Part shown: positions 5,757 through 59,958 of the stretch, piece by piece
Layout: the number at the start of each line of letters is the position of its first letter
How positions within the stretch are numbered: position 1 is the first letter of the stretch
Assembly: GCA_001794025.1 (NCBI GenBank)
Contig: MGJA01000012.1
Span: 8,455 to 72,454, forward strand
Direction of reading: 5' to 3'
Length of the DNA: 64,000 nucleotides
DNA from: Candidatus Yanofskybacteria bacterium RIFCSPHIGHO2_01_FULL_41_21
GTDB lineage: Bacteria; Patescibacteriota; Minisyncoccia; 2-02-FULL-40-12; GWA2-44-9
Made by a program: the position numbers and the translations under genes
Notes under the pieces: model-generated
Databases searched by the model: none
What the model was told of the DNA's origin: nothing
The model's input: the letters and a program-made list of their open reading frames with translations, nothing else

Positions 5757-5870
5757 CTGAAAACCTACTTTTTGACCCAGTAGCGGAAGGGGTCCCGCGA
5801 AGCGGGGAAACCGACGGTCCGCCAACTGGCGGATGGTTTCCCGGGTCTGGGGCAAATGAGCAGGTTTTCA
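5757..5870. repeat. Family A GC-rich palindromic multi-hairpin element, copy A1 (variant flanks CTGAAAACCT / AGGTTTTCAG)
   Basis: Core GACCCAGTAGCGGAAGGGGTCCCGCGAAGCGGGGAAACCGACGGTCCGCCAACTGGCGGATGGTTTCCCGGGTCTGGGG is shared with the 7583, 42909 and 59798 copies. Compensatory changes preserve the stems (GGAAACC/GGTTTCC versus GGAACC/GGTTCC; CCCGCGAAGCGGG versus CCCAGCGAAGCTGGG). Confidence 0.6.
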
Positions 5871-7405: not shown

Positions 7406-7582
7406 TGGTTGGTAGAGTTAGAAAAACCATTTTGGTACTTCTAGCTAATATTAAAGGAAAGTTAACTCTACTATACCTAAAAGTTTGGTTTTATGCAAAT
7501 TGGGTTGTTAACAGTCCATTTCGCCCGATTACCATTTTATTGCGGCTTCATTGCGAGAAGTCGCACAGTAATTTAATCTTAA

Positions 7583-7762
7583 GTCACTTGGGGGTATACT
7601 CTTAGACCCAGTAGCGGAAGGGGTCCCAGCGAAGCTGGGGGAACCGACGGTCCGCCAGCTGGCGGATGGTTCCCCGGGTCTGGGGATAAGAGTATGCCCC
7701 AAGTGACGTTGATACAATTTGAGGAGCAACTGAGTCGGGAGTTGGGTGGAGGAAGTGGAATC
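7583..7762. repeat. Family A element copy A2 with 22-bp TIRs (GTCACTTGGGGGTATACTCTTA ... TAAGAGTATGCCCCAAGTGAC) and about 55-nt conserved tail
   Basis: Near-identical core to A1 and A4. Flanking TIRs and the GTTGGGTGGAGG tail are seen directly. Lies between rny and gpmI. Confidence 0.6.
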
Positions 7763-14736: not shown

Positions 14737-14747
14737 CCCAGGTAGTA

Positions 14748-14872
14748 GAAATCCGACCTGCGCTTTGTTTTGCTTACTAAAACGCAAGAATAATATCTCT
14801 ATTTTATCTATTAAATGCCACAAATAGTGAAGGTTAAGCGCATGCAAAACATGTCGGATTTTCACTACCTGG
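14748..14872. mobile_element. Family C MITE-like element, long copy (C-b)
   Basis: TIRs CCAGGTAGTAGAAATCCGAC ... GTCGGATTTTCACTACCTGG. Sits 11 nt upstream of the likely start of the transglycosylase gene. Confidence 0.55.
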
Positions 14873-15008: not shown

Positions 15009-17225
15009 ATGATAAAAGTCCAAAATAATCTCCGACGTTTTGTCTGTTTTCTTTTAGTTATCTTAGCATCTTTTATTTTTGTAAATTCGGTCTCAGCTGT
15101 CACTCTTGGAATTTCCGGAAATCGTTTTACTCTTGATGGCCAAGCCAAATTTTTGGTCTTAAGTGGTTATTGGGATGGCTTGGATGCTCCTAATCCATCA
15201 GCTGACCTTAATTATCTTAAATCTAAAGGGTTTGATGGTATTAGAATATTTCCTAATTTGTGGGATTATTGTGCTGGTTGTTCTTCTGAATTTACACCTG
15301 GCAACAACCCAGTTATTAAACCCGATGGAACCATAAACCAATCTAGATTAAATCAATTAATTTCAATTATAGACACGGCAAATAGTTTGGGAATGATTGT
15401 TGATGTAACATTTGCCAGAGAAACAATAGCAGGAAATTGCCAAGCTAGCGCGGGGAATCCTGTTATTTGTATCACAGAATTTAAAAATGGAGTTATATCC
15501 GTCGTTAATGCTCTTAAAAATAAAACTAATGTTTTTTACGATTTATCTAATGAATACGATCATCCAGCAATAGATGTCCCTAATGCTGATATAATAGACC
15601 TCAAAAATAGAATCCGAAGTAACGTGGGGACAAACATAATTCTCTCTGTTTCTAGTAGCCAACCCAGCGGCTCTGTAGCAATAAATAATGCCCGTTCTAT
15701 GGGTATGAATTTAGTAAGTGTTCACTGGGCTTCTGGAACAACAGAATTAAATACCAGCCTTTATCCTGGTTCAATAATTTCATCTTTGCCGACATATGTG
15801 GGAGAGCCATATAATACCCACTCTGTGTCTGGTTACACTTCAGCGGAACTTATAAATGGAGTGGTAGAAGCAAAGAAGGCCGGTATCGCCGCTTGGTTGT
15901 TCCATTCAGATGCCACTTTCTTATCAAATGGTGAATATCCAATTAGATTTCAAAGCAATGAACAAGGATTTGTAAATAGTTTTTTATCGGCTTTACAAAG
16001 TGTAACTTGGGGTGGGGGTGGGGGCGGGGGTGGGACGGTACCACCGCCAACCAGTGGGGCTTGCATAAATCCGGCACCGGCCACATCAACTGTTCCGGAC
16101 ATGAAATCGGTTGTCCAAGGGGTAGCAGCGGCTCATCCAAACTGGTTACAAGACGTGTGTAATAGTTATGATTTTATAGACGAAGTAGTAAGACAATTAA
16201 GGGCTGGCCCAGGCGGGACGAGATGGGCTTATGAAGCGAAGCGGGCCAACTTAAGTGATCCTTGGCAGGAAGGAATTTCTTATTACTACGGTTCAGGAAA
16301 CGCACCAACTCCAGGAACAATGAGTCAATATGAGGTCTTTGCAATTGATATCGTTCATCAATATTGCGGTGTTGCCGGCGGAGGCACAAATACTGCTGAT
16401 TGGAATGTTGCAGATTGGCCTTATCGCAGTCCAAACTTAGTAGAAGTCGCTTATCTCTATCCAAGAAACGCCGGTGGCTCTCTGCCTGCTCCCCAACTTT
16501 GTACGGGGCAACCCCCTCCCCAGCCGCCACCGCCGCCCACCGGTCCGCCGACAATAACCGGTATCAGTCCTCTAAGAGCGGCTATCGGTCAAACAGTAGA
16601 AATTTATGGCACGAATTTAGTTGAAGATATTAAATTAGAATTATCGGATGGAAGATTTTACACGGTAACAGGAGTAGTTGATTTTCAAAGAACAACTCTT
16701 AGTTTCACAGTCCCCGATGCTCCCGCCGGTTCCTACAAAATATCTATCACCGGACCAAGTGGTTCAGCTACCAGTCCTCAAAATTTAGAAGTAGTTGCTG
16801 GTGGTTCCGGCTTCCCCCCTCCCCTTAACCTAGGTGTGCCTTCAGAAGGTCTACCAACTGATTTAGGACAGCTTATTGAGGCAATATTCAGTTGGTCTCT
16901 TTCTTTGATTGGTTTAGTTATCTTTGTCCGTTTCTTCTATGCCGGATTCTTATGGTTTACGGCGGCGGGTAATACAAATAGGACGGGACAAGCAAAAGAT
17001 ATAATGAAAAACGCCATTTATGGCGCTTTGATTCTTTTCTCGGCTTGGTTGATTCTTAATACTATCAACCCTGATTTGGTGGGAGGGGTCTTTGATTTAC
17101 CGGGGCTATCGGGGACGGCACCAACAAGCGGGACAGGAGGAACAGGAACAGCGGTCACTTGTAACAATGGTGTTTGCAGTAATGGTTTTACTGGGCCTTG
17201 TCAGGCCCCAACTGACTGTCAATAA
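15009..17225 (+). CDS. large secreted multidomain protein: signal peptide, GH5-like glycoside hydrolase region, poly-Gly and poly-Pro linkers, IPT/TIG-like domain, C-terminal two-helix TrbC/VirB2-pilin-like module, Cys-rich tail
   Basis: Signal peptide FVCFLLVILASFIFVNSVSA. LSNEYDHP resembles the GH5 NEP acid/base motif. ITGISP...VEIYGTNL is IPT/TIG-like. The C-terminal 100 aa (LIEAIFSWSLSLIGLVIFVRFFYAGFLWFTAAGN...AKDIMKNAIYGALILFSAWLIL) has two hydrophobic helices separated by a short loop. Confidence 0.8.
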   Translation: MIKVQNNLRRFVCFLLVILASFIFVNSVSAVTLGISGNRFTLDGQAKFLVLSGYWDGLDAPNPSADLNYLKSKGFDGIRIFPNLWDYCAGCSSEFTPGNNPVIKPDGTINQSRLNQLISIIDTANSLGMIVDVTFARETIAGNCQASAGNPVICITEFKNGVISVVNALKNKTNVFYDLSNEYDHPAIDVPNADIIDLKNRIRSNVGTNIILSVSSSQPSGSVAINNARSMGMNLVSVHWASGTTELNTSLYPGSIISSLPTYVGEPYNTHSVSGYTSAELINGVVEAKKAGIAAWLFHSDATFLSNGEYPIRFQSNEQGFVNSFLSALQSVTWGGGGGGGGTVPPPTSGACINPAPATSTVPDMKSVVQGVAAAHPNWLQDVCNSYDFIDEVVRQLRAGPGGTRWAYEAKRANLSDPWQEGISYYYGSGNAPTPGTMSQYEVFAIDIVHQYCGVAGGGTNTADWNVADWPYRSPNLVEVAYLYPRNAGGSLPAPQLCTGQPPPQPPPPPTGPPTITGISPLRAAIGQTVEIYGTNLVEDIKLELSDGRFYTVTGVVDFQRTTLSFTVPDAPAGSYKISITGPSGSATSPQNLEVVAGGSGFPPPLNLGVPSEGLPTDLGQLIEAIFSWSLSLIGLVIFVRFFYAGFLWFTAAGNTNRTGQAKDIMKNAIYGALILFSAWLILNTINPDLVGGVFDLPGLSGTAPTSGTGGTGTAVTCNNGVCSNGFTGPCQAPTDCQ
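16803..17110 (+). repeat. duplicated about 308-nt C-terminal module (copy 1) shared with 19264..19571 at about 93-95% nucleotide identity
   Basis: Direct comparison of the two nucleotide stretches; they differ only at scattered positions. Confidence 0.8.
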
Positions 17226-17256: not shown

Positions 17257-19587
17257 ATGGCAAATCGTATCCTAAAATTACTCTTAATAACGTTTCTTTT
17301 TATATTTCCCATACAATTAGTTTTTTCCAGTATTCCTCAATCTCTTCCTGCTCCGACTCATTCTATAATGTTCGGATATTATCATGTCGACTCACAATAC
17401 GGCGACTTTAAAGATGAAGTAAAGGACTACACAAACACCCAACTTATTCTTCAAGAAAGTTTTTTGAGAAGCGACCTAAATAATATCCAAGAATTTAATG
17501 ATGCTTTTGATGAGACGATAACCTTGGGACATAAAATTGTCTATGTCTTGGGGACGGACTGGAATCAAGGTCTTAATGCCGTTAAGCCCTATTGGAATAA
17601 CGTTGAGTTTATTTACTTAGCTGATGAGCCGAGTTGGGATAAAGCAACAACAGAGACCAATATTACTAATTTTAAAAATTTAGTAACCCAAGCCGGACTG
17701 GCTCAAAAACAGATAGCTATCAATTATACCCCCCAACAAATCCAAACTGGCACCAGTTATCAAGCCGTTAATCTAGACATCATCGGATTTGAAGCATATG
17801 TAGATCCGGCCAAGCAAGATGACCCCAATATCCTGACAATTTTAGAAGATCAGATAGATGCTTCCAAGCAAAAAATAGGCAATAAAAAAATGTTTATTGT
17901 TATTCAGGCCTATGACCGAAACGGTGTCTGGAAAAACATGACCTCTATTCAGGATATCCAAATTACCCCATACTTAAAATCTTACAATGATAGTAATGTC
18001 ATCGGCCTGTTTATGTTTTCTTATGCCCGATCGGGCGGAACGAGAGACAACCCGACCCTAAAAACAGCCCATCAATTAATCAGCGATACTTTGCTCGGAA
18101 AAGGACCCATTGAATCAACAATTACCGACGTCACTACAGGTTGGGGCGGTAGCTTGGCTTTTAATCCAACAAATAATACATGGATGGTTGTTAGTCACCA
18201 TCATACAATGAAAGATATATTTGCTCGTTTACTCGATAATAATGGTAACCCCTTAACCGTTATGACTACCGTTGACCAAGAACCTACATTTCTTACGGGC
18301 GGTCCAGAAGTGGCTTATTCTCCTGATATAAATAAATTCTTAATTGTCTGGTGGCAAGAAAATATTACAGACACTTCCGCGGACATTTATGGTCGTTTCA
18401 TGTCAGCTGACGGTGCTCTCTTGGGGAATGCCTTTAATCTTACCCCAAATGACTCTCGGGTTCCCTATCTCGCCGAAAGTTCAATAATGCAATACGATTC
18501 CCGCAATAAAAAATTTGTCTTTGCTTTTGAAAACAGGGCCCCAGGAAATGTGTCGGTCTATTTAAAAACGGTCGGCATAGACGGAACTGTCGGACCAACT
18601 TTGATGATAGCTGAAAATCCGCCGGATTTTTTGGGCGCACCATCATTAGCGATAAATGAAACAGGAAATGAATATTGCATAAGTTACCAAAATGCCGGCG
18701 CCAATCAACCCAATAAATTAGCCGCAGAATCAAGTAGTTTGGCTGTAAAAAGGATTGATGCCTCCACCATGCAAGTCGGACCTGAAACATTTGTTTCTAA
18801 CGATATGTACTACAACGGTGGTATCGTTTACAATTCACAAGAGGATAAATATTTTGCCACTTGGACCAACTACGCTTTAAGCACCGGACTTGCAAAAACT
18901 CTCAACTCCTGCGACGGTACAGACACTGATGATACTGAAGATATTGATATTTCTACTTCGGGAGTTATTTCTTATAACCCAAAATCAAATACTTATGCTC
19001 TGATTGCTCAAGATTGTTGTAGTGTACGCAACAACTACATTATTTTTGACACGTCTTTAAATGTCCTGGAACAAGGAACCGTGTTCACTGATTCCAAAAA
19101 ATCTGAAATAACAGGTGACCCCGAAGCTGGCGGTAATTTTGCTCCAGTAATCATGGCTAACACTAACAACGGGACATATGGTGCCACTTCCAGTATGGAT
19201 TATGCTACCACAAGATTTGCCTCCAATGTTGGTTCGACTGTTCTGCTTGGTAGAACATATAGCGGTTCCGGCTTCCCCCCTCCACTTAATCTGGGTGTAC
19301 CTTCAGAAGGTCTACCAACTGATTTAGGACAGCTTATTGAGGCAATATTCAGTTGGTCTCTTTCTTTGATTGGTTTAGTTATCTTTGTCCGTTTCTTCTA
19401 TGCCGGATTCTTATGGTTTACGGCAGCTGGTAATACATCAAATACAAGTAAAGCAAAGGATATAATGAAGAACGCCGTTTATGGCGCTTTGATTCTTTTC
19501 TCGGCTTGGTTGATTCTTAATACTATCAATCCTGACCTGGTGGGAGGGGGCTTTGATCTACCGGGATTGAGTGGTGGGATGCCTTAA
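17257..19587 (+). CDS. large secreted protein: signal peptide, glycoside-hydrolase-like region (IYLADEPSW), beta-rich repeat region, same C-terminal TrbC/VirB2-like two-helix module
   Basis: Signal peptide ILKLLLITFLFIFPIQLVFSS. C-terminal 100 aa nearly identical to the preceding gene. Confidence 0.8.
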   Translation: MANRILKLLLITFLFIFPIQLVFSSIPQSLPAPTHSIMFGYYHVDSQYGDFKDEVKDYTNTQLILQESFLRSDLNNIQEFNDAFDETITLGHKIVYVLGTDWNQGLNAVKPYWNNVEFIYLADEPSWDKATTETNITNFKNLVTQAGLAQKQIAINYTPQQIQTGTSYQAVNLDIIGFEAYVDPAKQDDPNILTILEDQIDASKQKIGNKKMFIVIQAYDRNGVWKNMTSIQDIQITPYLKSYNDSNVIGLFMFSYARSGGTRDNPTLKTAHQLISDTLLGKGPIESTITDVTTGWGGSLAFNPTNNTWMVVSHHHTMKDIFARLLDNNGNPLTVMTTVDQEPTFLTGGPEVAYSPDINKFLIVWWQENITDTSADIYGRFMSADGALLGNAFNLTPNDSRVPYLAESSIMQYDSRNKKFVFAFENRAPGNVSVYLKTVGIDGTVGPTLMIAENPPDFLGAPSLAINETGNEYCISYQNAGANQPNKLAAESSSLAVKRIDASTMQVGPETFVSNDMYYNGGIVYNSQEDKYFATWTNYALSTGLAKTLNSCDGTDTDDTEDIDISTSGVISYNPKSNTYALIAQDCCSVRNNYIIFDTSLNVLEQGTVFTDSKKSEITGDPEAGGNFAPVIMANTNNGTYGATSSMDYATTRFASNVGSTVLLGRTYSGSGFPPPLNLGVPSEGLPTDLGQLIEAIFSWSLSLIGLVIFVRFFYAGFLWFTAAGNTSNTSKAKDIMKNAVYGALILFSAWLILNTINPDLVGGGFDLPGLSGGMP
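19264..19571 (+). repeat. duplicated C-terminal module (copy 2)
   Basis: See 16803..17110. Confidence 0.8.
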
Positions 19588-35188: not shown

Positions 35189-35218
35189 AGTAATTAGCGA
35201 TTAGAACCTAGGACTTAG
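35189..35218. repeat. left inverted repeat / heptamer array (AGTAATTAG-CGATTAG-AACCTAG-GACTTAG) flanking the four-helix-bundle gene
   Basis: Matches 35573..35602 in inverted orientation, with the two middle heptamers swapped. Confidence 0.45.
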
Positions 35219-35558
35219 CCCTTTTTATCATACTATTCAACATTTTCCTAACTTCAGTAAGTAAGTTAACTATATCAGTATAACCTGACTTTATATAGTT
35301 CAGTTCATATGCCAATATTAATTGGGATTCAATTTCACTTGTTGAACCAAATGCCATAGAAAGAAACTGCTGTCCCTCTTTAAATGTTCTTCTACTAAAT
35401 CCTTCTGCAATATTGGACATAACTGAAACAGAAGCTCTTCTGAGCTGATTAGTGAGCCCGTATATTTCAGACCTAGGAAATGATTCTGTTACCCGATATA
35501 TTTCCTTAGTAAGGACCAGCGATTTCTGCCAAACAATTAGATCTTTGTAAGAATTCAT
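35208..35558 (-). CDS. four-helix-bundle protein (family commonly found in 23S rRNA intervening sequences)
   Basis: DLIVWQKS...E.YGLTNQLRRASVSVMSNIAEGFSR...E..QFL.MA.GS..E...QL.LA is the characteristic pattern of this family. Confidence 0.8.
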   Translation of the reverse strand: MNSYKDLIVWQKSLVLTKEIYRVTESFPRSEIYGLTNQLRRASVSVMSNIAEGFSRRTFKEGQQFLSMAFGSTSEIESQLILAYELNYIKSGYTDIVNLLTEVRKMLNSMIKRAKS

Positions 35559-35572
35559 ATCCTTCTGTTTTT

Positions 35573-35602
35573 CTAAGTCCTAATCGCTAGGTTCTAATTA
35601 CT
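35573..35602. repeat. right inverted repeat of the four-helix-bundle cassette
   Basis: CTAAGTC-CTAATCG-CTAGGTT-CTAATTACT. Confidence 0.45.
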
Positions 35603-36269
35603 TCCTGAAGACGGCGAGTTTGAAGCCGACGAAACTGAAGACCAAAGCTATTGCCGAACCGGCGACAGCACCGACGTTAGCCCAGATATGGGCGTTCAAA
35701 CCGGCAAAAGGTTGAATATAATTTACAACCAATGTGGCGATGCCAACATTAATAGAGAATGAAACAACAGTGACTATAAAAAACTTACCGAATTCAGTGG
35801 CTCCGCCTTCGTTATTTTTGGAGTGAAAAGCCCAATATTTATTCCAAATATAACTGGAACAAAGAGCAATCAGAAACGAGATTGATTTCATGGCCGAATA
35901 ACCCTTGCCGTCAACGAAACCAGTTTGCGAGATAAGAATATTTAAAATTCCAAAATCAACGGCAGCATTTGTAAAGCCAATAGCCGAAAATTTTCCGAAT
36001 TGGTTGAAAAATTCCAACCACTCCCCAAGAAGGTACCCCAACAATACACCAAGAATCCAAAGAACAGGAACCAGAAATATTAACCAAGTCCAAGAAATGC
36101 CATCTGTCGCAGACCCGAAACAATAACCCATATCACAATTTATTCCACTGGAAAGTAATTCCGGTATTTTTAAAAACTCAAATATCTTCCACCCAATCGT
36201 GCCCGTGAGCAATCCTGTCAACACCGCAAACCCCAGATCACGCTTAGTAAATTTTCGCAAAAAATTCAT
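35598..36269 (-). CDS. GtrA-like family membrane protein
   Basis: C-terminal half has the GtrA pattern (G..N...DF..LN.L ... NKYWAF) with 4 TM helices. N-terminal extra TM region. Confidence 0.5.
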   Translation of the reverse strand: MNFLRKFTKRDLGFAVLTGLLTGTIGWKIFEFLKIPELLSSGINCDMGYCFGSATDGISWTWLIFLVPVLWILGVLLGYLLGEWLEFFNQFGKFSAIGFTNAAVDFGILNILISQTGFVDGKGYSAMKSISFLIALCSSYIWNKYWAFHSKNNEGGATEFGKFFIVTVVSFSINVGIATLVVNYIQPFAGLNAHIWANVGAVAGSAIALVFSFVGFKLAVFRK

Positions 36270-36271
36270 GA

Positions 36272-36622
36272 TTAAATGTTATTCTGTTTTAATTTTTCTT
36301 TTTTCGCTTCATAAGCAGCTTGATACACTGCCTGTTTACGCCATAATTCTGTATTTAGTATATCTAACTCCTCTTTTCGTGGTCCAACCGCATTTTCCCA
36401 TTCTTCATAAAATTCATTATCGAGAAGCATGGTCTTTTTAGCATTAAGTTCTGCAGGGGAAGAATCTCCGTTTAATAATTCATTAAACAACTGAATCTCT
36501 TCAGCAGTCACTTCAAGTTTAAATATACTATTCTGGCGTTCATGCCACGCAAATACTTCTTTTAATTTTGTTGGGACTTCTTCTTTCTTTTCTGTTGAAT
36601 TGTCAGGCATTTCATGACTCAT
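36272..36622 (-). CDS. hypothetical acidic protein
   Basis: 116-aa soluble ORF translationally coupled (3-nt gaps) between the VirB4-like and GtrA-like genes. Confidence 0.45.
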   Translation of the reverse strand: MSHEMPDNSTEKKEEVPTKLKEVFAWHERQNSIFKLEVTAEEIQLFNELLNGDSSPAELNAKKTMLLDNEFYEEWENAVGPRKEELDILNTELWRKQAVYQAAYEAKKEKLKQNNI

Positions 36623-36625
36623 GAT

Positions 36626-39061
36626 TTATTTTGTTAATTTATTTTGATTGAATTTGGCTTTGATTTCGTCTTCAACTTCTTGGCGATGGCGGGCAAATTT
36701 GGAACGGGATAATTGCTTGAGGTACGCAGTCATCTCAGGATTGCCGGCGCCAAAGACCCGTTCGGTTTCCAATTTAATATTGAACGGTAAAGCGGTTTGA
36801 CCGCCGATAAGCAAATTAACATATGCGTTCAAATTATCAATGTTCATAATATCTTGGGCATTAAAAACGGGTTCAAATTTATTCTTCATAAACTCGGCAT
36901 CGTCGGGACCGATACGGAAGGAAGCAATTGAACCGACATTGCCGAAGACGGCGTCGCGAATCCCATCTTTTAATTGTTTGACGAACTGGTGGGCAATAAT
37001 CAAGTCCAAATGATATTTGCGGGCTTCGGACAGAATTGTGGAAATGCTGTCGGTGGTAAAGTTTTGGAATTCATCAATATACAAATACATGTCCTTACGG
37101 GCGGATTCGTCGGCAATATCAACCCGCGACAGCGCCGACATGAGAAGTTTGCCCACAATAATCATACCCAAAAGATTGGCGTTGAGGTCGCCGATGCGAC
37201 CTTTAGACAGATTGACGACCAAAATTTTCTGACTATCCATAACTTCTCGGAAATTGAATGAACTCTTTTGTTGATTGATAATCGGTCGGAGAAATTCATT
37301 AAAAACAAATGACGTAATCTTTGAGGTGATATACGGCGCCATACTGGCTAAACTTTGTTCACCTTGAGCTTTCTCGGCTTCAAGTTGCCAAAATTGAACA
37401 ACGAGCGGATTTGTTTCCCGAGTTAATTTGTCAGCCCGATAAGCGTCGTCCACTAACACGCGAGAAATATCCGCCAAGGTCGGCACTTCATGCGCGTAAT
37501 CATCCAACAAAAGTAAAGCTGAATTTTTGAAATATTTTTCAAACATCGGTCCGCCGGTTGTTTTTAAGTCGTACAATTTATCAAAAATCCCAAACAACTC
37601 ATCAATAACCATAGATTTTTGTTCGGGATGAGTCGGGTCAATTTCAAACATATTTAGACCCATGGGAAAATCAATATCACCGGGGTCAAAATAAATGACA
37701 TCTTCGGCCCGTTCGGGTGGAACGATTGAAAGGACGAATTCAGCAAAATCACCGTGAGGATCAATCACACAAACACCTTTACCATTCTCCACATCTTGTC
37801 TAAGCATGGATTTCATAAAGACGGTTTTGCCCGTACCCGTCTGTCCGATAACATACAAATGACGTCGGCGGTCGGCATCGGACATCCGAACCTCTTTTTC
37901 AATCCCCCGAAAAACACTTTTGCCAAGCACCACGCCTTCATTGGGAAGATTCAAGGGAGCGGGAGCGGATTTTGAATTGACAAATTTTACGCCCGCCGAA
38001 GTGGTGGAAATCGGAAAATGATATAAACTGGCGAGTTCTTCAGATGAAAGTAAGACCTTCTGACTTTCGTTAAACATTCGAAATGAAAAATTAAAAAGGA
38101 AAGAACGCAGATAGCGACCCGTCATTTTGTTAAGCGAAAATTCATTTTGATCAGTCGTTGAAAATTGAGCCAGCGCACCCGCCAAAATATCTAACAATTG
38201 ACTGGCCCGCGGTTCTGATTCAGCGGAGACAACCAATCGGATATTGGCATCAAACCATGGTTTGGATGCTTTCGTTTGAATACCTTTAATCACTTCTTCC
38301 TCAAAAGGCGTAACGACTTTGGGTGGTTGTTTGGCTAATTCTTCAGGAGTCGGTTCTTTGGGTGGATTCTTAGTCCGTTTTATGGCGTCTTTGAGTTGGT
38401 GGCCATGTTGCATTTGCCGAACCACTTTTTCCGCAAATTTACGTTGACCATCTTGATGAGATGGTCTGAATAAAATTTGAAGTGCGGCACCCTCTCCTTG
38501 ATGATTGATTTTAGAAAGACAAGCTAAAATTTCTCCCAGCGGATCGCTTTCTAATTTTTGATAGGTCTTGATAGGCAAGATTGAATCATTTTTCTGGGTG
38601 ACAGAAGCGCCTAGGGCCACACCTCCGGGATGAAAAACGGAATAATCCTGCACCGGTTCAATGTGGGCTTCGGGATACAGGCCGTGAATTTGTTTTTCAA
38701 AAATATCTTCAATGCTTCTGGGTACGGCCATATAGAATTGAATATCCTGGCCGATATGTCTCACGGCAATTTCTAAAACTAGATATGGCTCACCATATAT
38801 AAACTTGTTCCAACCCTTGGTGTGGATATTGGTAAAAGACCCGTATAACTGTTCCATGATGCCAATAAGTTCTTTTTCGGGACGTTGAGGAGCACCTTGA
38901 AAACCCGGCAATGTCGGTCGTGGAAGCGTAATTGAAAAAAGCGCCATATTCAGCGCCCGAGCGATTGAACCCTTAGAACGTAAAGAATTAAGCGTAACTA
39001 GCGCTGAAACAATAATCAAAACCAGAACGACACCATATACAATCAGAAGAAATATAGACAC
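36626..39061 (-). CDS. VirB4/TrbE/CagE-family type IV secretion ATPase-like protein
   Basis: 811 aa. N-terminal TM. Walker A GQTGTGKT at about residue 405, Walker B LYIDEFQNF, and downstream AHQ region. Placement of the NTPase domain in the C-terminal half is typical of VirB4. Confidence 0.65.
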   Translation of the reverse strand: MSIFLLIVYGVVLVLIIVSALVTLNSLRSKGSIARALNMALFSITLPRPTLPGFQGAPQRPEKELIGIMEQLYGSFTNIHTKGWNKFIYGEPYLVLEIAVRHIGQDIQFYMAVPRSIEDIFEKQIHGLYPEAHIEPVQDYSVFHPGGVALGASVTQKNDSILPIKTYQKLESDPLGEILACLSKINHQGEGAALQILFRPSHQDGQRKFAEKVVRQMQHGHQLKDAIKRTKNPPKEPTPEELAKQPPKVVTPFEEEVIKGIQTKASKPWFDANIRLVVSAESEPRASQLLDILAGALAQFSTTDQNEFSLNKMTGRYLRSFLFNFSFRMFNESQKVLLSSEELASLYHFPISTTSAGVKFVNSKSAPAPLNLPNEGVVLGKSVFRGIEKEVRMSDADRRRHLYVIGQTGTGKTVFMKSMLRQDVENGKGVCVIDPHGDFAEFVLSIVPPERAEDVIYFDPGDIDFPMGLNMFEIDPTHPEQKSMVIDELFGIFDKLYDLKTTGGPMFEKYFKNSALLLLDDYAHEVPTLADISRVLVDDAYRADKLTRETNPLVVQFWQLEAEKAQGEQSLASMAPYITSKITSFVFNEFLRPIINQQKSSFNFREVMDSQKILVVNLSKGRIGDLNANLLGMIIVGKLLMSALSRVDIADESARKDMYLYIDEFQNFTTDSISTILSEARKYHLDLIIAHQFVKQLKDGIRDAVFGNVGSIASFRIGPDDAEFMKNKFEPVFNAQDIMNIDNLNAYVNLLIGGQTALPFNIKLETERVFGAGNPEMTAYLKQLSRSKFARHRQEVEDEIKAKFNQNKLTK

Positions 39062-39079
39062 GGATTGAATTTATAAAAA

Positions 39080-39487
39080 CTACTTAACGACCTCTACTCG
39101 CTTCTGTTCCACGAGCATTTGATAGAGGTTGCCCGTCAGAGCGCTGTGAAATGCATCAATCAGAGCAATGTCATTAGAGTCCTTGGCAGTTTTAATCCCC
39201 TCGGCCAAACTTTTGGTAAAAGCGATATTAACCCAGCCCTGAATTTTTTCTTGAGCATCCGGAGGTAAAGAATCGTCAGTCGTGGTCGTATGAGACGAGG
39301 CCTTAAATTCCGGGACGTGTTGTTGAATCGCTCCCTCAATAACTTGAGACATTGTCTCATGTTCAGTTGGTGATGGTGCCTCGGCACCCAATTCGCCCCG
39401 TTCTTTCATTTGTTGCTCAATCTCCGCCCGCTTCTGCTGGTATTCCTGTTCCACTTGCTGTAATTGTTCGGCCGATGTTCCTTCCAT
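39080..39487 (-). CDS. hypothetical protein (Gln/Glu-rich N-terminus)
   Basis: 135-aa ORF, first gene of the minus-strand cluster ending at 35598. Confidence 0.45.
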   Translation of the reverse strand: MEGTSAEQLQQVEQEYQQKRAEIEQQMKERGELGAEAPSPTEHETMSQVIEGAIQQHVPEFKASSHTTTTDDSLPPDAQEKIQGWVNIAFTKSLAEGIKTAKDSNDIALIDAFHSALTGNLYQMLVEQKRVEVVK

Positions 39488-39568: not shown

Positions 39569-41083
39569 ATGCAAAGATACTCGCACAGAGAAATATTAAT
39601 TATTGTTGGTATTCTTATTATCGCATCATTCTTCCGGTTCTATCAATTAGATAAATATCCGCCGGGTCTCTATCCCGACGAAGCCATGAATGGTTCCAAC
39701 GCTCTCGTCGCCAATGCTACGGGTGATTATAAAATTTTCTATCCTGAAAATTTTGGCCGAGAGGGCTTATTTATTAATATCCAAGCCCTCTCAATTAAGT
39801 GGTTCGACGTCAATTCGTGGTCGCTACGAAGCGTTTCCGCCATTTTCGGAATTCTAACTGTCTTGGGTCTTTTTCTGTTGGCCCGAGAACTATTTAGTTG
39901 GCAGGTTGGAGCAGTATCAAGTTTTTTGCTGGCAATTTCATTTTGGCATGTAAATTTTTCTCGGATTGGATTCAGGGCAATTATGTTGCCTTTTATTTTG
40001 GTCTATTTATTTTATTTCCTCTGGAAGGGTCTGAAACATTCAAGTTGGATAGATTTCTTTTGGGCTGGAATTTTAGGTGGATTGGGATTTTATACCTATA
40101 CCTCATACCGTATCGCGCCTTTAATCGCCATCCTTATCTTCATTAACTACTGGATGTTTATAAAAAAGGACTTTCATCACGAAAATTACGAACATACCCG
40201 CAATCGTTTTTTGGGTGGTTTCTCTCTTTTTATGATTACTGTCTTTTTTGTTGCTCTGCCAATTGGTATCTACTTCTTGAAAAATCCGGAAAACTTTATG
40301 CAACGCAACACGCAATCGGTGTTTGCTCAAGAACAATCATTTCGTGAGCTTGGGGGTAGCGTCATTAAAACACTAGGCATGTTTACCTTTCAAGGTGATG
40401 GTAATGTCCGCCATAATCTAGATAGTCAACCCATGTTGGGCTGGCCAATTGCTATTTTGTTTGCTATTGGATTTTTAAAAGAGTTATATCATTGGTTAAG
40501 ACGAAAACACGGTCATTTTTCACCCGTCCATACGTTATTGTTTGTCTGGTTCTTCGTGTTTCTTATTCCGGGATTTCTTTCAACCGAAGCACCTCACGCC
40601 TTGCGCGCTGTCGGCGTAATTCCCGTCGTTATGATATTTGCTGCGAGGGGTTTTATGTGGTTATTTAACGCCGCTGAAGGATGGGAAAAAATTACTCATC
40701 CCTGGATGGCCCAAGGCCACCGTCAATTTGTTTTACCAATTTTAGTAGCATTTTCCCTCTTGGGCGCATTCAGTTTCTACGAATACAACCGGTATTTTAA
40801 TATTTGGGGACCAAGCCAAAAAACGGCCGATTCTTTCTCTGTAAATTATGTTGAGATTGCCAATGAAATAAATGCCTCACCAATAACTAAAAAGAAATAT
40901 GTTATTGTAAGCCCTTCATCAGTTGATGCTTATGGTTTACCAATTCGTGCCGAAACGGTTATGTTTTTAACTGACACGGTTTTACCTCCCACTCAGCGCG
41001 CTAAAAATTTAACCTACCTAACAGTTGACCAAGCAAAAAATTATAAATTCAGCCCAAACGCTTCGGTTTGGTATGTTAAATAA
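39569..41083 (+). CDS. GT39/ArnT-like (PMT-family) polyprenyl-phosphate-sugar-dependent glycosyltransferase
   Basis: N-terminal YPPGLYPDEAMNGSNA (DE motif in first loop) and about 11 TM helices. Confidence 0.75.
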   Translation: MQRYSHREILIIVGILIIASFFRFYQLDKYPPGLYPDEAMNGSNALVANATGDYKIFYPENFGREGLFINIQALSIKWFDVNSWSLRSVSAIFGILTVLGLFLLARELFSWQVGAVSSFLLAISFWHVNFSRIGFRAIMLPFILVYLFYFLWKGLKHSSWIDFFWAGILGGLGFYTYTSYRIAPLIAILIFINYWMFIKKDFHHENYEHTRNRFLGGFSLFMITVFFVALPIGIYFLKNPENFMQRNTQSVFAQEQSFRELGGSVIKTLGMFTFQGDGNVRHNLDSQPMLGWPIAILFAIGFLKELYHWLRRKHGHFSPVHTLLFVWFFVFLIPGFLSTEAPHALRAVGVIPVVMIFAARGFMWLFNAAEGWEKITHPWMAQGHRQFVLPILVAFSLLGAFSFYEYNRYFNIWGPSQKTADSFSVNYVEIANEINASPITKKKYVIVSPSSVDAYGLPIRAETVMFLTDTVLPPTQRAKNLTYLTVDQAKNYKFSPNASVWYVK

Positions 41084-42897
41084 TGAAAAGATATTCGCTC
41101 ATCGCTGGCGTATTGATTGTTGTCACCAGTATTATCGCCATTGCCAGTGCTTGGCATGATTCCCCTATTGTTGACGAAATTCCTCACATCGGCGCCGGTT
41201 ATTCATACGTTTCCGGTCATACATATCAATTCAATCCCGAACATCCTCCGCTGGCAAAAGATTTTGCCGGTCTAGCCCTTCTGACACTCAAGATTAATCC
41301 CAACTTTCTTTCATCTTATAATATTTCTCACCAAGGAATAGTAAACGACCAATGGAATTTTGGACGACAACTGATATACCACTCCGGCGTTGATCCGGCT
41401 ACTATTGTTCATACTGCTAAACTCCCCCTTATATTATTCTTTATTTTATCCGGTTGGCTTATCTATGCTTGGGGAAAACGAACATATAATCACCGTACCG
41501 CTCTTCTGGCGGTATTTCTGTTTGCATTTTCTCCGACTATAATCGCTCACAGTCGATTTGTGACAACCGATGTCCCCGCTCTCTTTGGAATTTTATTCGC
41601 GACCTATTTTTTTCTTCGTTACCTGCGAGAACATAACACTTTAAATTTTTGGTTGGCTTCAGTCACATTCGGCGTCGCCCTGCTCACTAAGTTTTCAACA
41701 TTTCTCCTTATTCCCTACTTCTTACTCTTGGCTCTTGTTTGGGTCTGGATTCAAAACAATGAGTATATTAAACCCACTTTTCGTTTGCTTACAAGGACCG
41801 CCCTCGTAATGGTGGTGGGATTCGTTGTAATTGTTGGACCGATTTATCAATTACAAATTTTTAATTATCCACCCACTCAGCAAAAAAATGACACTGAAAT
41901 AATTCTTAGAAATTATCCCGTCCCCACCCTTTCTAAAGCCGTCATCTGGGCGTCGGACAAACCAGTACTTCGGTCATACGCTCAATGGGGTCTGGGAATG
42001 GCAATGGTTTTTCAACGCGCCGAAGGCGGTAACAATACTTATTTCCTTGGTCAATTCTCTAATAAATCATTTAAAGCATATTTCCCAGTTGTCTATGTCC
42101 TTAAAGAACCAATTCCGTTTTTAATTCTTCTTTTAAGCGCAATCTGGCTCGGTTGGAGGGCGTGGCGTAATAATCGCGAACCATTTAAAAATAAACTGCG
42201 TGACCGCTTTCCGGTTTTTGCTATGCTTCTTTGGATTTTTATCTATGTCGCCACAAGTATCAACGCCAATCTTAATATCGGCGTTCGCCATCTTATTCCA
42301 ATCTACGGATTTATCTTTATTCTAACGGCCGGGGCAATTGAAAAAATGATTACGGATTACGGATTACGGATTAAAACCGGATCGGGTAAATTCGTAATTC
42401 GTAATTCGCAATTCGTAATTGTTGGATTATTAATTTGGTATTTGGTTGAATTTATCTCCTTCTATCCTAACTACCTAACCTACTTTAATCAATTTGCTCT
42501 TTTCCGTCCTTCTTGGGTTTCAGAAGAACAAAAAAATTGGCCGAGAGGCGGATATAATTATGTCGTTGATTCTAATCTTGATTGGGGTCAAGATCTCTGG
42601 CGTTTGGACGATTTTATAAAACAAAATAAAATTCAAAAGATATATCTTGATTATTTCGGCTGGGCTGATCCAACCTTTTATCTCGGTGACGCCTTTGTTT
42701 GGATAGTGGGCGGAAAATACACCAGCGCCGAGTCCTTTCTTAAAGACAACCCCGCCGGCGGTTGGCTTGGCGTCTCCGCCAGTTTCTACCAAGAATCAAC
42801 CGTTAATCCCGCCAGTCCATATACCTGGCTTGAAAATATAAAACCGACGGCGATGGTTGGTAACTCAATTTTCGTCTGGCATATCACTCAACCTTAG
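41083..42897 (+). CDS. GT39/GT83-like membrane glycosyltransferase, second copy
   Basis: N-terminal HDSPIVDEIPHIGAGYSY...EHPPLAK, polytopic. Start overlaps the stop of the upstream gene. Contains an in-frame tandem/inverted heptamer insertion (see 42355). Confidence 0.7.
   Translation: MKRYSLIAGVLIVVTSIIAIASAWHDSPIVDEIPHIGAGYSYVSGHTYQFNPEHPPLAKDFAGLALLTLKINPNFLSSYNISHQGIVNDQWNFGRQLIYHSGVDPATIVHTAKLPLILFFILSGWLIYAWGKRTYNHRTALLAVFLFAFSPTIIAHSRFVTTDVPALFGILFATYFFLRYLREHNTLNFWLASVTFGVALLTKFSTFLLIPYFLLLALVWVWIQNNEYIKPTFRLLTRTALVMVVGFVVIVGPIYQLQIFNYPPTQQKNDTEIILRNYPVPTLSKAVIWASDKPVLRSYAQWGLGMAMVFQRAEGGNNTYFLGQFSNKSFKAYFPVVYVLKEPIPFLILLLSAIWLGWRAWRNNREPFKNKLRDRFPVFAMLLWIFIYVATSINANLNIGVRHLIPIYGFIFILTAGAIEKMITDYGLRIKTGSGKFVIRNSQFVIVGLLIWYLVEFISFYPNYLTYFNQFALFRPSWVSEEQKNWPRGGYNYVVDSNLDWGQDLWRLDDFIKQNKIQKIYLDYFGWADPTFYLGDAFVWIVGGKYTSAESFLKDNPAGGWLGVSASFYQESTVNPASPYTWLENIKPTAMVGNSIFVWHITQP
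42355..42420. repeat. intragenic tandem-inverted heptamer repeat (GATTACG x2.5 then AATTCGT x4) in-frame within the GT39-like gene
   Basis: acggattacggattacggattaaaaccggatcgggtaaattcgtaattcgtaattcgcaattcgtaatt, encoding ITDYGLRIKTGSGKFVIRNSQFVIV. Confidence 0.45.
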
Positions 42898-42908
42898 TGG
42901 TTTTCTTG

Positions 42909-43127
42909 CGGCTTCCGCTCGGAGTTCGCTCCCTCCACCCCAAACTCGATTATCCATCAAATTGTGTCAACGTCACTTGGGGTATACTCTTATCCCCAGA
43001 CCCAGGGAACCAGTCCCGTCGGTTCCCGAGGCGATTCTAGAGGCGGCTAAAGCACGCCTCCAAGAAACTTCGCCTTGACCAAAGGGTCCCCTTCCGCTAC
43101 TGGGTCTAAGAGTATACCCCAAGTGAC
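42909..43127. repeat. Family A element copy A3 (inverted orientation; GCGAAGC hairpin replaced by a 56-nt nested-hairpin insert)
   Basis: TIRs GTCACTTGGGGTATACTCTTA ... TAAGAGTATACCCCAAGTGAC. Core and tail match A2/A4 in reverse complement. Confidence 0.6.
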
Positions 43128-43171
43128 TTAAAATTAAATTACTCTCTTTTTTGGGTATTTTTTTAAATAAA

Positions 43172-43210
43172 AAAAGACCCCGTCGGAAGTCGCAATGTGG
43201 ACGGGGCTTT
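43172..43210 (-). terminator. rho-independent terminator (strong on minus strand)
   Basis: GACCCCGTC-GGAAGTCGCAATGTG-GACGGGGC. On the minus strand it is followed by UCUUUUUUUAUUU. Confidence 0.6.
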
Positions 43211-43700
43211 GTAGATTTTGGAGAGTAACGGGTCCGGACGGTGCGAACGAGTGATTTCCTCGTCGCACCGTCCGGCCGCCAGCCGGGCGATCGGCACGGA
43301 TCTTGGGCGCGGAGGTGTCACACCGCCCTCACCTTTAGCCGACCGCCCCGACTTCGTTTTCTCTGGCCGCCACAGAATTGTCATTGGTGCCGGTACGGGT
43401 ACGGGGAGCTCTCCCGACCCATGCGGCCCACCAAGCAATTGGTGAGGGCCAGACGTTCATCGCGATTGAGTCGCGACACTTACAGACCGGGTAAATAAAG
43501 GTCTCTATGAGAACATCGTCGAACCCCTCCTGGGGTGTACCTTTATCCACACACGGTCTTTTTAATGACCTGGGTTGCTGGAGACAGTTGGACGTCTCGG
43601 AGTTTTTTATTTCTCCGGCTCCCTTAGGCCCAGGTCAATTCATGAGCAACGGGCTCGCAAAAACCAATACCTACTCGCCCGTCCGTAGTTATACGGAGGA
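43211..43700 (-). ncRNA. GC-rich (about 60% GC) roughly 500-nt non-coding island with multiple stable hairpins; candidate structured ncRNA of unknown class, or a decayed GC-rich mobile insertion
   Basis: No credible ORF. Composition is very different from the roughly 38% GC surroundings. Has a 15-bp hairpin GGACGGUGCGAACGAG/CUCGUCGCACCGUCC and ends at the 43172 terminator on the minus strand. I tested tmRNA, RNase P and SRP consensus motifs by eye and could not place them. Confidence 0.3.
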
Positions 43701-44031
43701 GGGCTAACGCTCGCTATATATACGAACTTCTCTATGTTTCTATCGGCCTATTCAACTAAATAAAGTGATGATGCCTGAAAATAGCGTATTTACTGGTTTT
43801 TGCGAGCCCATTACTGGGCTCTTTATAAAGAACAGACCTATACAACCATTATAGCACCCTGCGCCTAGGAAGTCAACCCCGCCGTTGAGAAGCGACATTT
43901 AGGGCTAATTAATGGCTTTAAACCTATGTAAATTGTTCCCACCATTATTTTACCTATAGTCCATTTGAAGAATATTCATCGCTTCTCAACGGCGGGGTCA
44001 ATACCCCACAAAATTGGTATAACATAAGGGG

Positions 44032-59502: not shown

Positions 59503-59797
59503 ATGATAATTTAACCATATCTAGAATCACTTCGCCACTGGGTTTATTATCGCGGCTTCCTCTTGGACTATTTCTACTCGCTTCTCCTAATTTCTCTGAC
59601 CGCCCGAAGCAACTCCTGTCGGGCCATGCGGCTTCGCTTCGCTCACCCGTTCCCGACATCCTCGGAACGGTTCCCAGAGAAATAGCGTTGAAACTCGTGA
59701 AATAGAACCAATCGTGCAGATGCTCAATAAACCCAGTGGCTCAGTGCTTTTTCTAGAAAAACCCAAAGCGAGAAGTCACGTAGCAATTTAATTCTAA

Positions 59798-59958
59798 GTC
59801 ACTTGGGGTATACTCTTAGACCCAGTAGCGGAAGGGGTCCCAGCGAAGCTGGGGGAACCGACGGGACTGGTTCCCCGGGTCTGGGGATAAGAGTGTACTC
59901 CAAGTGACGTTGATACAGACGGATAATCAAGTCGGGGGTTGGGGTGGAGGGAGCGGAG
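59798..59958. repeat. Family A element copy A4 (TIRs + core + tail; tail overlaps the last codons of murG)
   Basis: Near-identical to A2, with a shortened central hairpin (GGAACCGACGGGACTGGTTCC). Confidence 0.6.

Follow-up and report, generated by a model that had tools for sequence, protein, structure and literature searches.

The question raised by this locus is whether a large ATPase in a genome of Candidatus Yanofskybacteria (Patescibacteria) forms, together with three small neighbouring genes, a minimal type IV secretion (T4SS) apparatus. A preliminary description of the window (the whole analysed stretch of 64,000 nucleotides) had proposed a translationally coupled operon of four minus-strand ORFs coding for 135, 811, 116 and 223 aa around a VirB4-like ATPase. 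All four ORFs were found, next to a pair of oppositely oriented glycosyltransferase genes:

35598..36269, minus strand: GtrA-family polytopic membrane protein, 223 aa
36272..36622, minus strand: p116, acidic protein, 116 aa, pI 4.9
36626..39061, minus strand: ATPase of the coupling protein (T4CP) type, DUF8128 family, 811 aa, GTG start
39080..39487, minus strand: p135, Q/E-rich protein (24 % Q+E), 135 aa, pI 4.7
39569..42897, plus strand: two PMT_2/PMT (GT-C) glycosyltransferases, 504 and 604 aa (Pfam PMT_2 and PMT), divergent from the p135 and ATPase genes

The Q/E-richness and acidity ascribed to the 135-aa and 116-aa proteins are thereby borne out. The described 3-nt gaps apply exactly between the ATPase and p116 genes (3 nt) and nearly between the p116 and GtrA genes (2 nt), but not between the p135 and ATPase genes (18 nt). 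A functional unit of four genes was not recovered: p135 is the only conserved partner of the ATPase, while p116 and GtrA are not kept with it. What remains as the core of the locus is a module of two genes, p135 and the 811-aa ATPase, rather than a T4SS operon of four.

The ATPase is composed of the following elements:

38990..39055, minus strand: N-terminal membrane anchor, about residues 3–24 (hydropathy and AF2), followed by the basic stretch RSKGSIAR
38012..38947, minus strand: DUF8128 (PF26449) α/β N-terminal domain, about residues 39–350
36752..37933, minus strand: RecA-like P-loop ATPase domain, about residues 377–770
37823..37846, minus strand: Walker A motif GQTGTGKT, residues 406–413
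37070..37075, minus strand: Walker B motif, D663-E664

Hydropathy analysis revealed a single strong N-terminal hydrophobic helix (residues 3–21, KD 3.16), and in the AF2 model (pLDDT 89) residues 2–37 form one continuous helix, in agreement with the transmembrane (TM) segment noted earlier. Due to the positive charges following this helix, an N-out, C-in topology is predicted, which places most of the protein in the cytoplasm. The DUF8128 domain, assigned from precomputed Pfam annotation of the identical and of related proteins, has α/β secondary structure in the AF2 model and is colinear with plasmid-encoded DetA-like proteins from residue 70 on. The ATPase domain harbours an all-α insert at about residues 481–609 and a T4CP-like HQxxKQL motif (residues 691–697), and the catalytic motifs are invariant across the homologues compared.

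Sequence comparison assigns the ATPase to the coupling-protein branch (T4CP; VirD4/TrwB/MobB/DetA-like) and not to VirB4. Pfam matches were obtained for TrwB_AAD_bind (38.4 bits, cut-off 20.5) and DUF87 (43.3 bits), and the top NCBIfam matches are TraD coupling proteins, while the protein falls well short of the full-length cut-off curated for every named T4CP family (e.g., 46 vs 366 bits for TIGR03743). Among PDB sequences, the family profile retrieved TrwB (2.3e-7) and DotL (8.6e-7), and no VirB4 at E <= 1. A tblastn search against plasmids yielded 238 records, in which every annotated match is of the VirD4/TraG/TraD (T4CP) class. Full-length plasmid homologues are encoded directly upstream of a Replic_Relax (MOB_C-type) relaxase, heading clusters with their own AAA_10 VirB4. 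Likeness to DetA of the staphylococcal conjugative plasmid pWBG4 and to “DUF87 domain-containing” proteins of Bacillus plasmids is full-length and colinear (residues 70–765, 20–27 % identity, E = 9e-46) and comprises the DUF8128-type N-domain, the ATPase domain with its all-α insert and the Pfam DUF87 signature. These plasmid relatives are MobB-like T4CPs paired with MOB_C relaxases, the relaxase gene being followed by a complete Tcp/ICEBs1-like channel including VirB4. They possess long acidic C-terminal tails and no TM helix, whereas the ATPase of the window is TM-anchored, chromosomally encoded, without relaxase and paired with p135; no p135 partner was found near the DetA-like plasmid genes. 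With the canonical T4CPs TrwB (R388), VirD4, DotL and Cagβ the ATPase shares the Walker A/B and Q..xQL motifs as well as an N-terminal membrane anchor. Canonical T4CPs usually have two TM helices; the ATPase of the window has one, and differs further by about 300 additional residues, the DUF8128 domain, that separate anchor and ATPase domain, and by the missing relaxase or channel context.

The partner p135 is a small acidic all-helical protein and the sole conserved ATPase partner among the four genes. Its Q/E-rich N-terminal helix is joined by a variable linker to a conserved C-terminal module of two helices bearing the motif KG..A...A.K..DPyiLD.FHD.L; no TM helix was detected, and the family has no match in Pfam or among PDB sequences. 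A homologue is encoded directly upstream of a TM-anchored ATPase in about 30 of 85 loci; in another 35, it is joined to a TM-less ATPase as its N-terminal part. The anchor is present in 30 of the 31 loci with separate p135 and absent from all 35 fused ones. For a fused relative, AF2 models the p135 region as helical (helices 15–36, 42–58, 73–82, 89–114 and 117–134; pLDDT about 90 over residues 90–140). Position and fusion suggest that p135 may act as adaptor or regulator of the ATPase motor. A comparable arrangement is known for CagZ, which is encoded next to cagβ. CagZ is likewise a small all-helical protein and regulates the T4CP Cagβ (title of PDB entry 8dol); the likeness is one of analogy only, with no sequence similarity detected, and p135, unlike CagZ, also occurs as an N-terminal fusion to the ATPase.

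In Patescibacteria, the ATPase gene lies on the chromosome, has a very wide distribution and surpasses dnaX and serS in conservation. Clustering at 90 % yielded more than 7,266 homologues and clustering at 50 % gave 21,013 representative clusters (5,111 of these at E <= 1e-30), in addition to more than 600 matching stretches in GTDB species genomes. In the same genome pairs, identities amount to 65–68 % for the ATPase, 47–61 % for DnaX and 38–40 % for SerRS. Genes for relaxase, VirB4, VirB6 or VirB8 were not detected within about 6 kb of the ATPase gene in 80 related loci. A scan of the window for T4SS families, covering ORFs of at least 110 aa except for a few, several of which overlap larger genes, revealed no VirB4, VirB6, VirB8 or VirD4 beyond the ATPase itself; a relaxase was likewise not detected in the window. 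The earlier statement that VirB6, VirB8 and VirD4 are lacking thus stands for the first two among the scanned ORFs, but not for VirD4, since the ATPase itself is VirD4-like.

The reading preferred here, to which a probability of roughly 0.55 is given, is that of a chromosomal T4CP-type (VirD4/DetA-like) motor with p135, most likely serving a T4SS and merely flanked by p116, GtrA and the PMT_2 enzymes. The ATPase would be anchored in the cytoplasmic membrane by its single N-terminal helix, with the DUF8128 and ATPase domains in the cytoplasm. By analogy to TrwB and other T4CPs, we infer that it may assemble into a ring, hydrolyze NTP via its intact Walker A/B and Q-x-x-x-Q-L motifs and, at the membrane, receive or translocate nucleic acid or protein as its macromolecular substrate. 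In Firmicutes, members of its family are encoded on conjugative plasmids beside a MOB_C-type relaxase and would feed a Tcp/ICEBs1-like channel. In Patescibacteria, the gene would have lost the relaxase, turned into a vertically inherited, very slowly evolving chromosomal core gene and gained the lineage-specific helical partner p135. The latter may take the membrane-proximal N-terminal position, either, as in the window, as a separate protein with the TM-anchored ATPase or fused in place of the TM helix. The most likely client would be a Patescibacteria-type T4SS encoded elsewhere in the genome.

The main alternative is an exapted, T4SS-independent role, in which the T4CP-derived ATPase and p135 would act as a housekeeping motor on cellular DNA or RNA, be it in a replication-linked handling of the chromosome or in taking up and processing nucleic acids of the host to salvage nucleotides. 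Conservation beyond that of DnaX and SerRS and the absence of relaxase and T4SS genes from the surveyed neighbourhoods are consistent with such a role, as are the housekeeping genes flanking the ATPase in related loci: in 17 of 50 non-fused loci, from distant classes, dnaX follows downstream at a distance of about 1 kb, and the loci of the fused class are bordered by SecY-Adk-MAP on one side and by NDK and a β-CASP RNase on the other. Since the fused ATPases (35 of 85 loci) lack the membrane anchor, a soluble enzyme fits as well as a channel-docked coupling protein. Exaptation of patescibacterial VirD4-like homologues was left as a possibility by Quinonero-Coronel et al. 2025 (PMC12102498), and uptake of host RNA, by an unresolved mechanism, is on record for one cultivated patescibacterium (bioRxiv 10.64898/2026.06.21.733656). 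On the other hand, the gene order may be mere inherited synteny within lineages, the ATPase of the window is anchored in the membrane as T4CPs are, and its closest characterised relatives are conjugative coupling proteins. Exaptation is regarded as possible, yet rather unlikely, and any binding of nucleic acid by the ATPase as putative.

A role of the ATPase and p135 in envelope glycosylation together with GtrA and PMT_2, e.g., by driving the export of surface proteins or pilins or their glycosylation, is suggested by gene order in the Yanofskybacteria-like lineage, where the pair is flanked on one side by the divergent PMT_2 genes and on the other by GtrA, which is tightly packed or overlaps. 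The divergent PMT_2 arrangement is kept upstream in 9–12 non-fused loci and GtrA downstream in 8–9 of the 85 loci (Yanofskybacteria-like and few others), but all 35 loci of the fused class, and most of the others, lack this association. Moreover, conservation of GtrA (33–58 % identity across relatives) and PMT (42–57 %) is unrelated to that of the ATPase, and GtrA with a GT-C enzyme is a known self-sufficient arrangement (Gtr systems), which makes this joint role improbable. GtrA and the divergent PMT_2 enzymes are lineage-specific neighbours of the module, not partners. The earlier assignment of the 223-aa protein was corroborated by GtrA_DPMS_TM (PF04138; 62.8 bits, cut-off 26.1, E = 4.4e-17; residues 93–221). 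As in three-component GtrA/GT-C surface glycosylation, a GtrA domain occurs beside GT-C (PMT_2) enzymes; the 223-aa protein differs by an N-terminal extension of about 90 aa with hydrophobic segments, and the scanned ORFs of the window included no GtrB-type GT2. GtrA probably functions in envelope glycosylation alongside the PMT_2 enzymes, and the three would form a separate unit flanking the module in the Yanofskybacteria-like lineage. The intervening p116 is a lineage-restricted ORFan inserted between ATPase and GtrA and not a conserved component: the database search retrieved its own 100 %-identical entry and no other homologue, L001, the closest relative, has a weak positional homologue (26 % identity, E = 1e-5), and p116 is absent at five other loci (L002, L003, L005, L086 and L087). 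It may represent a fast-evolving local insertion.

The initial proposal, a VirB4/TrbE-type assembly ATPase forming a minimal or divergent T4SS or pilus-assembly operon with p135, p116 and GtrA, is largely refuted and considered very improbable. Its correct part is the membership in the type IV secretion ATPase superfamily, and several similarities speak for it: the ATPase, at about 800 aa, resembles VirB4, TrwK and ConE in size and in the layout of N-terminal α/β and C-terminal ATPase domains, the best Foldseek E-values were to full-length TrwK/VirB4 (TrwK, 1.4e-14 over about 900 columns), and T4SS_pilin-domain proteins are encoded in the window about 17 kb from the ATPase locus, with which they may or may not form a dispersed apparatus as suggested earlier. 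The TM-scores to TrwK are only about 0.29, however. Fold scores do not tell T4CPs from the VirB4 C-terminal domain, DptH or HerA, which, like the Foldseek ranking, tells against the T4CP reading. Remote profile similarity to plasmid VirB4s (hhalign, 85 % probability) includes only the last β-α unit of the N-domain, most of which is unaligned. The VirB4 model TIGR00929 scored 15.5 bits against a cut-off of 643, no Pfam match to AAA_10 or CagE_TrbE_VirB was found, and BLASTP to a genuine plasmid VirB4 was not significant (E = 0.43), as opposed to E = 9e-46 (residues 70–765) for the T4CP-position protein of the same plasmid. Plasmids with members of the ATPase family carry a separate VirB4, and p135 and p116 lack TM segments and are therefore unlike VirB3 or VirB8.

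Least probable is a remnant of an integrated conjugative element or an anti-phage defence ATPase (DndH/DptH-, HerA- or MADS-like), for, despite plasmid-borne closest characterised relatives and domain-level PADLOC matches (mad8, 3e-16; DndH and HerA, 1e-8), no integrase, relaxase or channel genes and no defence partners were detected in the neighbourhood of the ATPase gene, the GC content of its region (0.41–0.42) is unremarkable and resembles that of the flanks, and its wide distribution in the phylum, stable synteny and evolution slower than that of housekeeping genes are opposite to the behaviour of mobile and defence genes.

The T4CP-type motor with p135 preferred here belongs to a family of orphan T4CP homologues that is known but has not been characterised. 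According to Quinonero-Coronel et al. 2025 (PMC12102498), 2,918 of 3,035 Patescibacteria genomes together contain 5,713 VirD4-like homologues, and in only 148 cases is virB4 close by; the ATPase of the window is very probably one of these mostly virB4-distant, functionally uncharacterised profile matches. According to the same study, a T4CP homologue of Southlakia epibionticum, not necessarily of the DUF8128 family, is non-essential for epibiotic growth. DUF87 and GtrA are not mentioned there; term searches retrieved no literature naming DUF8128, and neither the DUF8128 subfamily and its DetA/MOB_C affinity nor p135 and the fusion/TM swap in that study. What is newly recognised with the present locus is the partner module p135 of the orphan T4CP homologues.

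All four minus-strand ORFs of the preliminary description were present in the window, and the Q/E-rich character of the 135-aa protein and the acidic character of the 116-aa protein were borne out by their composition. A protein of a Candidatus Yanofskybacteria MAG matches p135 at 100% identity, which marks the window as patescibacterial.

ORFs of the locus in order of transcription
39080–39487, minus strand, p135: 135 aa, pI 4.7, 24% Q+E
36626–39061, minus strand, ATPase: 811 aa, GTG start
36272–36622, minus strand, p116: 116 aa, pI 4.9
35598–36269, minus strand, GtrA: 223 aa

The tight spacing described as 3-nt gaps holds for ATPase/p116 (3 nt) and, at 2 nt, for p116/GtrA, and does not extend to p135/ATPase (18 nt). 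The 223-aa protein is GtrA-like as proposed (PF04138 over residues 93–221, 62.8 bits vs. a gathering score of 26.1), and the large protein carries a single strong hydrophobic helix at its N-terminus, modelled by AF2 as a helix over residues 2–37. Downstream of GtrA on the same strand follow a gene for a 23S-rRNA-IVS four-helix-bundle protein (35208–35558, minus strand; PF05635, 127 bits, weak bAvd-like match) and dnaX; no PF05635-domain gene was found at the corresponding place in the related loci L001, L002 and L005. Upstream of p135, two PMT_2/PMT glycosyltransferase genes are located in divergent orientation. As described, no VirB6- or VirB8-like protein, and likewise no VirB3-like protein, was detected among the scanned window ORFs. 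The small proteins p135 and p116 could not be related to VirB3, VirB7 or VirB8: both are devoid of a TM segment or lipobox-type N-terminus and yielded no Pfam or PDB sequence match.

The 811-aa protein had been regarded as a VirB4-like T4SS ATPase, an assignment which holds for the superfamily; for the family, VirB4 HMMs, BLASTP and profile alignments, and the gene context on plasmids all speak to the contrary, and VirB4 identity was dropped. The VirB4 model TIGR00929 scored 15.5 bits (cut-off, 643.1) and matched the Walker A region only, and neither PF03135 (CagE_TrbE_VirB) nor PF12846 (AAA_10) matched at E ≤ 0.01, whereas AAA_10 matches plasmid VirB4s at 1e-64 to 1e-116. Alignment of the ATPase family with plasmid VirB4s by hhalign (85% probability) was restricted to columns 268–757, and VirB4 was absent at E ≤ 1 when the family profile was compared with PDB sequences. 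All Pfam and NCBIfam matches on the ATPase fall within the Walker A region, where models of coupling proteins (T4CP, VirD4/TrwB class) and HerA/DUF87 outscore VirB4 (DUF87, 43.3 bits; TrwB_AAD_bind, 38.4; TraD-type models, up to 46). Named T4CP models remained below their full-length cut-offs (TIGR03743, 46.4 vs. 366; TIGR03754, 36.6 vs. 647; CD1115-type, 26.9 vs. 250; TIGR02759, 17.3 vs. 521). Among PDB entries, the family profile matched TrwB (2.3e-7) and DotL (8.6e-7).

Plasmid relatives were retrieved by tblastn against 72,556 plasmids. Matches were obtained in 238 records, covering at least 80% of the ATPase length in 28 of them, and all annotated matches belong to the T4CP class (VirD4, TraG/TraD, TraM-recognition or T4SS DNA-binding). 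The homologue carried by Bacillus plasmids and by pWBG4, a staphylococcal conjugative plasmid, is encoded directly upstream of a Replic_Relax relaxase and heads a Tcp/ICEBs1-like conjugation cluster that carries a separate AAA_10 VirB4. BLASTP aligned residues 70–765 of the ATPase colinearly with the homologue of a Bacillus licheniformis plasmid (E = 9e-46), compared to E = 0.43 for the VirB4 of the same plasmid. From these sequence comparisons, the 811-aa protein is classed as a DUF8128/DetA-type T4CP homologue and not as VirB4. The plasmid proteins differ from the window's TM-anchored ATPase in having no TM helix and in their acidic C-terminal tails, and the plasmid loci differ from the patescibacterial ones in their linkage to relaxase and channel genes and in the absence of p135. 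The DUF8128 domain (PF26449, missing from the local Pfam copy) is a precomputed database annotation, present on the identical protein P0001 and on 120 of 120 homologues among the matches listed; a literature search retrieved no paper naming DUF8128.

The AF2 model of the ATPase (pLDDT 89.2; based on a 40-sequence alignment) comprises the TM helix, an α/β domain (~39–350) and a RecA-like ATPase domain with an all-α insert (~481–609). Features in common with T4CPs are the P-loop domain with this insert, the conserved Walker A/B and Q motifs, and the N-terminal anchor of one TM helix (residues 3–24), the latter missing in 35 fused relatives; invariant residues are G406, G409 and K412 of Walker A, D663-E664 of Walker B, and Q692/Q696 of a T4CP-like motif. 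The RecA-like C-terminal fold is likewise shared with VirB4. Fold scores were 29.6 for the VirB4 C-terminal domain, 28.5 for TrwB (363 residues aligned), 28.5 for the DptH C-domain, 26.0 for HerA, 23.4 for DotL and 22.4 for Cagβ, and in Foldseek searches full-length TrwK/VirB4 gave the best E-values, yet TM-scores of only ~0.29, as compared to 0.65 for TrwB. Since these measures are mixed, fold alone cannot separate T4CP from VirB4; sequence, by contrast, discriminates, in that PDB profile matches and plasmid matches both point to the T4CP class. Membership in the HerA/FtsK group was not indicated either: NF040819 (HerA) scored 18.6 bits vs. 970 and HerA_C 17.2 vs. 22, no NurA-like gene neighbours the ATPase gene, and the N-domain is modelled as α/β DUF8128 rather than as HAS barrel or FtsK γ.

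The ATPase family falls into 21,013 clusters at 50% identity, 5,111 of which match at E ≤ 1e-30. GTDB species genomes, scanned by pattern, gave at least 600 matches; the best 80 of these loci all look patescibacterial, although a few records bear other taxon labels. For the same pairs of genomes, identity is 65–68% for the ATPase, as compared to 47–61% for DnaX and 38–40% for SerRS; constraint on the gene thus exceeds that on essential housekeeping genes, and it is among the slowest-evolving of its neighbourhood. Seven homologues of 1,400–2,000 aa (P0166, P0170, P0175, P0182, P0189, P0190 and P0196) contain the whole DUF8128-ATPase N-terminally, followed by an unassigned extension of 600–1,200 aa. 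Neither in the window nor in 80+ patescibacterial loci was a Replic_Relax homologue found, and the gene is not adjacent to a MOB_C relaxase; a ConE-type VirB4 was likewise not detected there with a low-sensitivity profile built from three Firmicutes sequences. The missing nearby relaxase and VirB4 agree with a survey of 3,035 genomes, which reported 5,713 VirD4-like homologues in 2,918 of them, counted just 148 homologues close to virB4, and left exaptation of the orphan homologues possible (Quinonero-Coronel et al. 2025, PMC12102498). The T4SS cluster of Southlakia itself has no recognisable coupling protein or relaxase (PMC10633639). VirB4 is missing from about 20% of assemblies.

For neighbour analysis, ORFs were called in 85 related loci and searched with the window's proteins. 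A p135 homologue lies directly upstream of the ATPase gene in ~30 loci (jackhmmer) and is fused to the ATPase N-terminus in 35 of the 85, yielding ORFs of 900–970 aa with the match at ~14–135. The N-terminal TM helix is present in 30 of 31 split forms and in none of the 35 fused forms. When a fused relative was modelled with AF2 (pLDDT 85), the p135 region was helical, with a confident C-terminal helical hairpin immediately before the first DUF8128 strand. No Pfam family or PDB sequence matched the p135 family, whose C-terminal part carries the conserved motif KG..A...A.K..DPyiLD.FHD.L. Thus p135 is the only conserved partner of the ATPase, an obligatory helical one on its N-terminal, membrane-proximal side.

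A non-homologous small protein occupies the upstream position of p135 in 11 loci of the Uhrbacteria, Falkowbacteria and Komeilibacteria types. The Uhrbacteria-type protein (cluster 7) was considered as a divergent p135 and rejected; because the hhalign probability was only 0.2%, it is apparently a non-homologous replacement. This unannotated family (L017:5396-5911 and 10 similar loci) consists of ~170-aa proteins with the motif IPGVNrFFLEQEAKIKTD, whose genes overlap or abut the ATPase start in most of their loci. Other unannotated genes were observed nearby: in loci of these same types, one for a ~230-aa protein between the ATPase gene and dnaX (L017:8457-9158 and 7 similar loci), and, in close relatives, genes for a large 616–979-aa protein and a ~100–110-aa protein in the interval between PMT_2 and p135 (L001:4274-7560, L086:1427-3588, L087:1103-3596), both absent from the window. 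A DUF5663 protein of ~100 aa is encoded near the ATPase in 7 other loci, mostly just upstream of p135.

The remaining two genes of the proposed four-gene functional operon are bound to lineage. The sole database match of p116 is its own 100%-identical entry; a weak positional counterpart exists in the closest relative (L001), and p116 is missing from relatives at 65–87% ATPase identity, so it was rejected as a conserved component. GtrA, confined to one lineage, was rejected likewise: it follows the ATPase in 8–9 of 85 loci, and PMT_2 is divergently upstream in 9–12, all of them in the class without fusion. In L086:6436-7667 (87% ATPase identity) two tandem GtrA paralogues replace p116 and GtrA. 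Accordingly, p116 and GtrA are bystanders of the ATPase/p135 pair. The preliminary description is confirmed as an observation and supported in part as an interpretation, the superfamily being right, the family and the operon concept wrong.

In the fused class (L019-L080; e.g., L028:1773-4514 and L025:4127-6626), the gene order is SecY-Adk-MAP, fused ATPase, NDK, a 148-aa protein, β-CASP nuclease and SLOG protein, while dnaX is located downstream of the ATPase in 17 of 50 non-fused loci. The nucleotide- and RNA-metabolism neighbours of the fused class may be meaningful or else inherited synteny.

Elsewhere in the window, two proteins of 738 and 776 aa (15009–17225 and 17257–19587, plus strand) each end in a T4SS_pilin domain (PF18895), the former also having TIG and cellulase-like regions; they are probably the pilin-like modules mentioned in the preliminary description. 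Beside them on the minus strand are genes for an SLT_2 lytic-transglycosylase-like protein of 489 aa (13396–14865) and a 457-aa protein without Pfam match (12072–13445); no accompanying VirB4 was detected within the window. A 1.1-kb gap without ORFs and with raised GC (0.46; 42898–44031) yielded no credible Rfam match. It contains a perfect 20-nt inverted repeat (43876–43895/43979–43998) and a ~200-bp self-complementary element (42927–43143), which looks MITE- or REP-like because of diverged copies at 59782–59955 and 7567–7722 and a fragment at 5766–5796.

The ATPase is a membrane-anchored protein with DUF8128 and ATPase domains predicted to be cytoplasmic. By analogy to TrwB and other T4CPs, it would assemble into a ring and could use NTP to receive or translocate a macromolecular substrate, and p135 may be its adaptor or regulator, as CagZ is for Cagβ (PDB 8dol); the client of the motor may be a patescibacterial T4SS encoded elsewhere in the genome. 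This reading of a T4CP with its partner, taken as a whole, is favoured at slightly better than even odds (about 0.55). Less probable, albeit a serious contender, is exaptation of the ATPase for DNA handling near dnaX or for import and processing of host nucleic acids; the NDK and RNase neighbourhood and the reported uptake of host RNA (bioRxiv 10.64898/2026.06.21.733656) hint at the latter. Weakly supported, and conceivable for this lineage only, is a functional link with the glycosylation genes GtrA and PMT_2. Quite speculatively, and with low probability, p135 and the DUF8128-ATPase could form a core machine peculiar to Patescibacteria, descended from the coupling protein of a conjugative system but working "in reverse" or for the cell's own purposes: a cytoplasmic motor that would pull host RNA or DNA, arriving via T4SS or pilus, into the epibiont to supply nucleotide salvage. 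The very wide distribution and extreme conservation of the gene in the phylum, the loss of the relaxase, and the position between Adk and NDK plus β-CASP RNase in one large lineage fit this picture. Unlikely are a role in anti-phage defence (DndH/DptH, HerA-based, MADS), for which PADLOC matches were partial, confined to the ATPase domain and lacking for neighbouring genes, and membership in a mobile element, against which speak the absence of relaxase and integrase and the stable synteny.

Patescibacteria are host-dependent, and epibiotic growth requires their T4SS, whose gene clusters contain no recognisable coupling protein or relaxase (PMC10633639). Elsewhere in their genomes, thousands of "orphan" VirD4-like genes have no assigned role (PMC12102498). 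The present family was already catalogued (DUF8128, "DUF87 domain-containing") and counted among these orphan T4CP homologues; new, as far as our searches show, are its specific kinship with coupling proteins of the DetA/MobB type, p135 as a partner together with the fusion/TM swap, and the bystander status of p116 and GtrA. A mis-annotation is thereby averted: it would be wrong to label the locus a VirB4 operon or to list GtrA and p116 among secretion components. One orphan gene is tied to the DUF8128/DetA-like T4CPs, partners of MOB_C relaxases on Gram-positive plasmids, and with p135 a previously unannotated, obligatory partner domain is at hand, whose fusion/TM swap offers a handle for interaction, localisation and depletion experiments.
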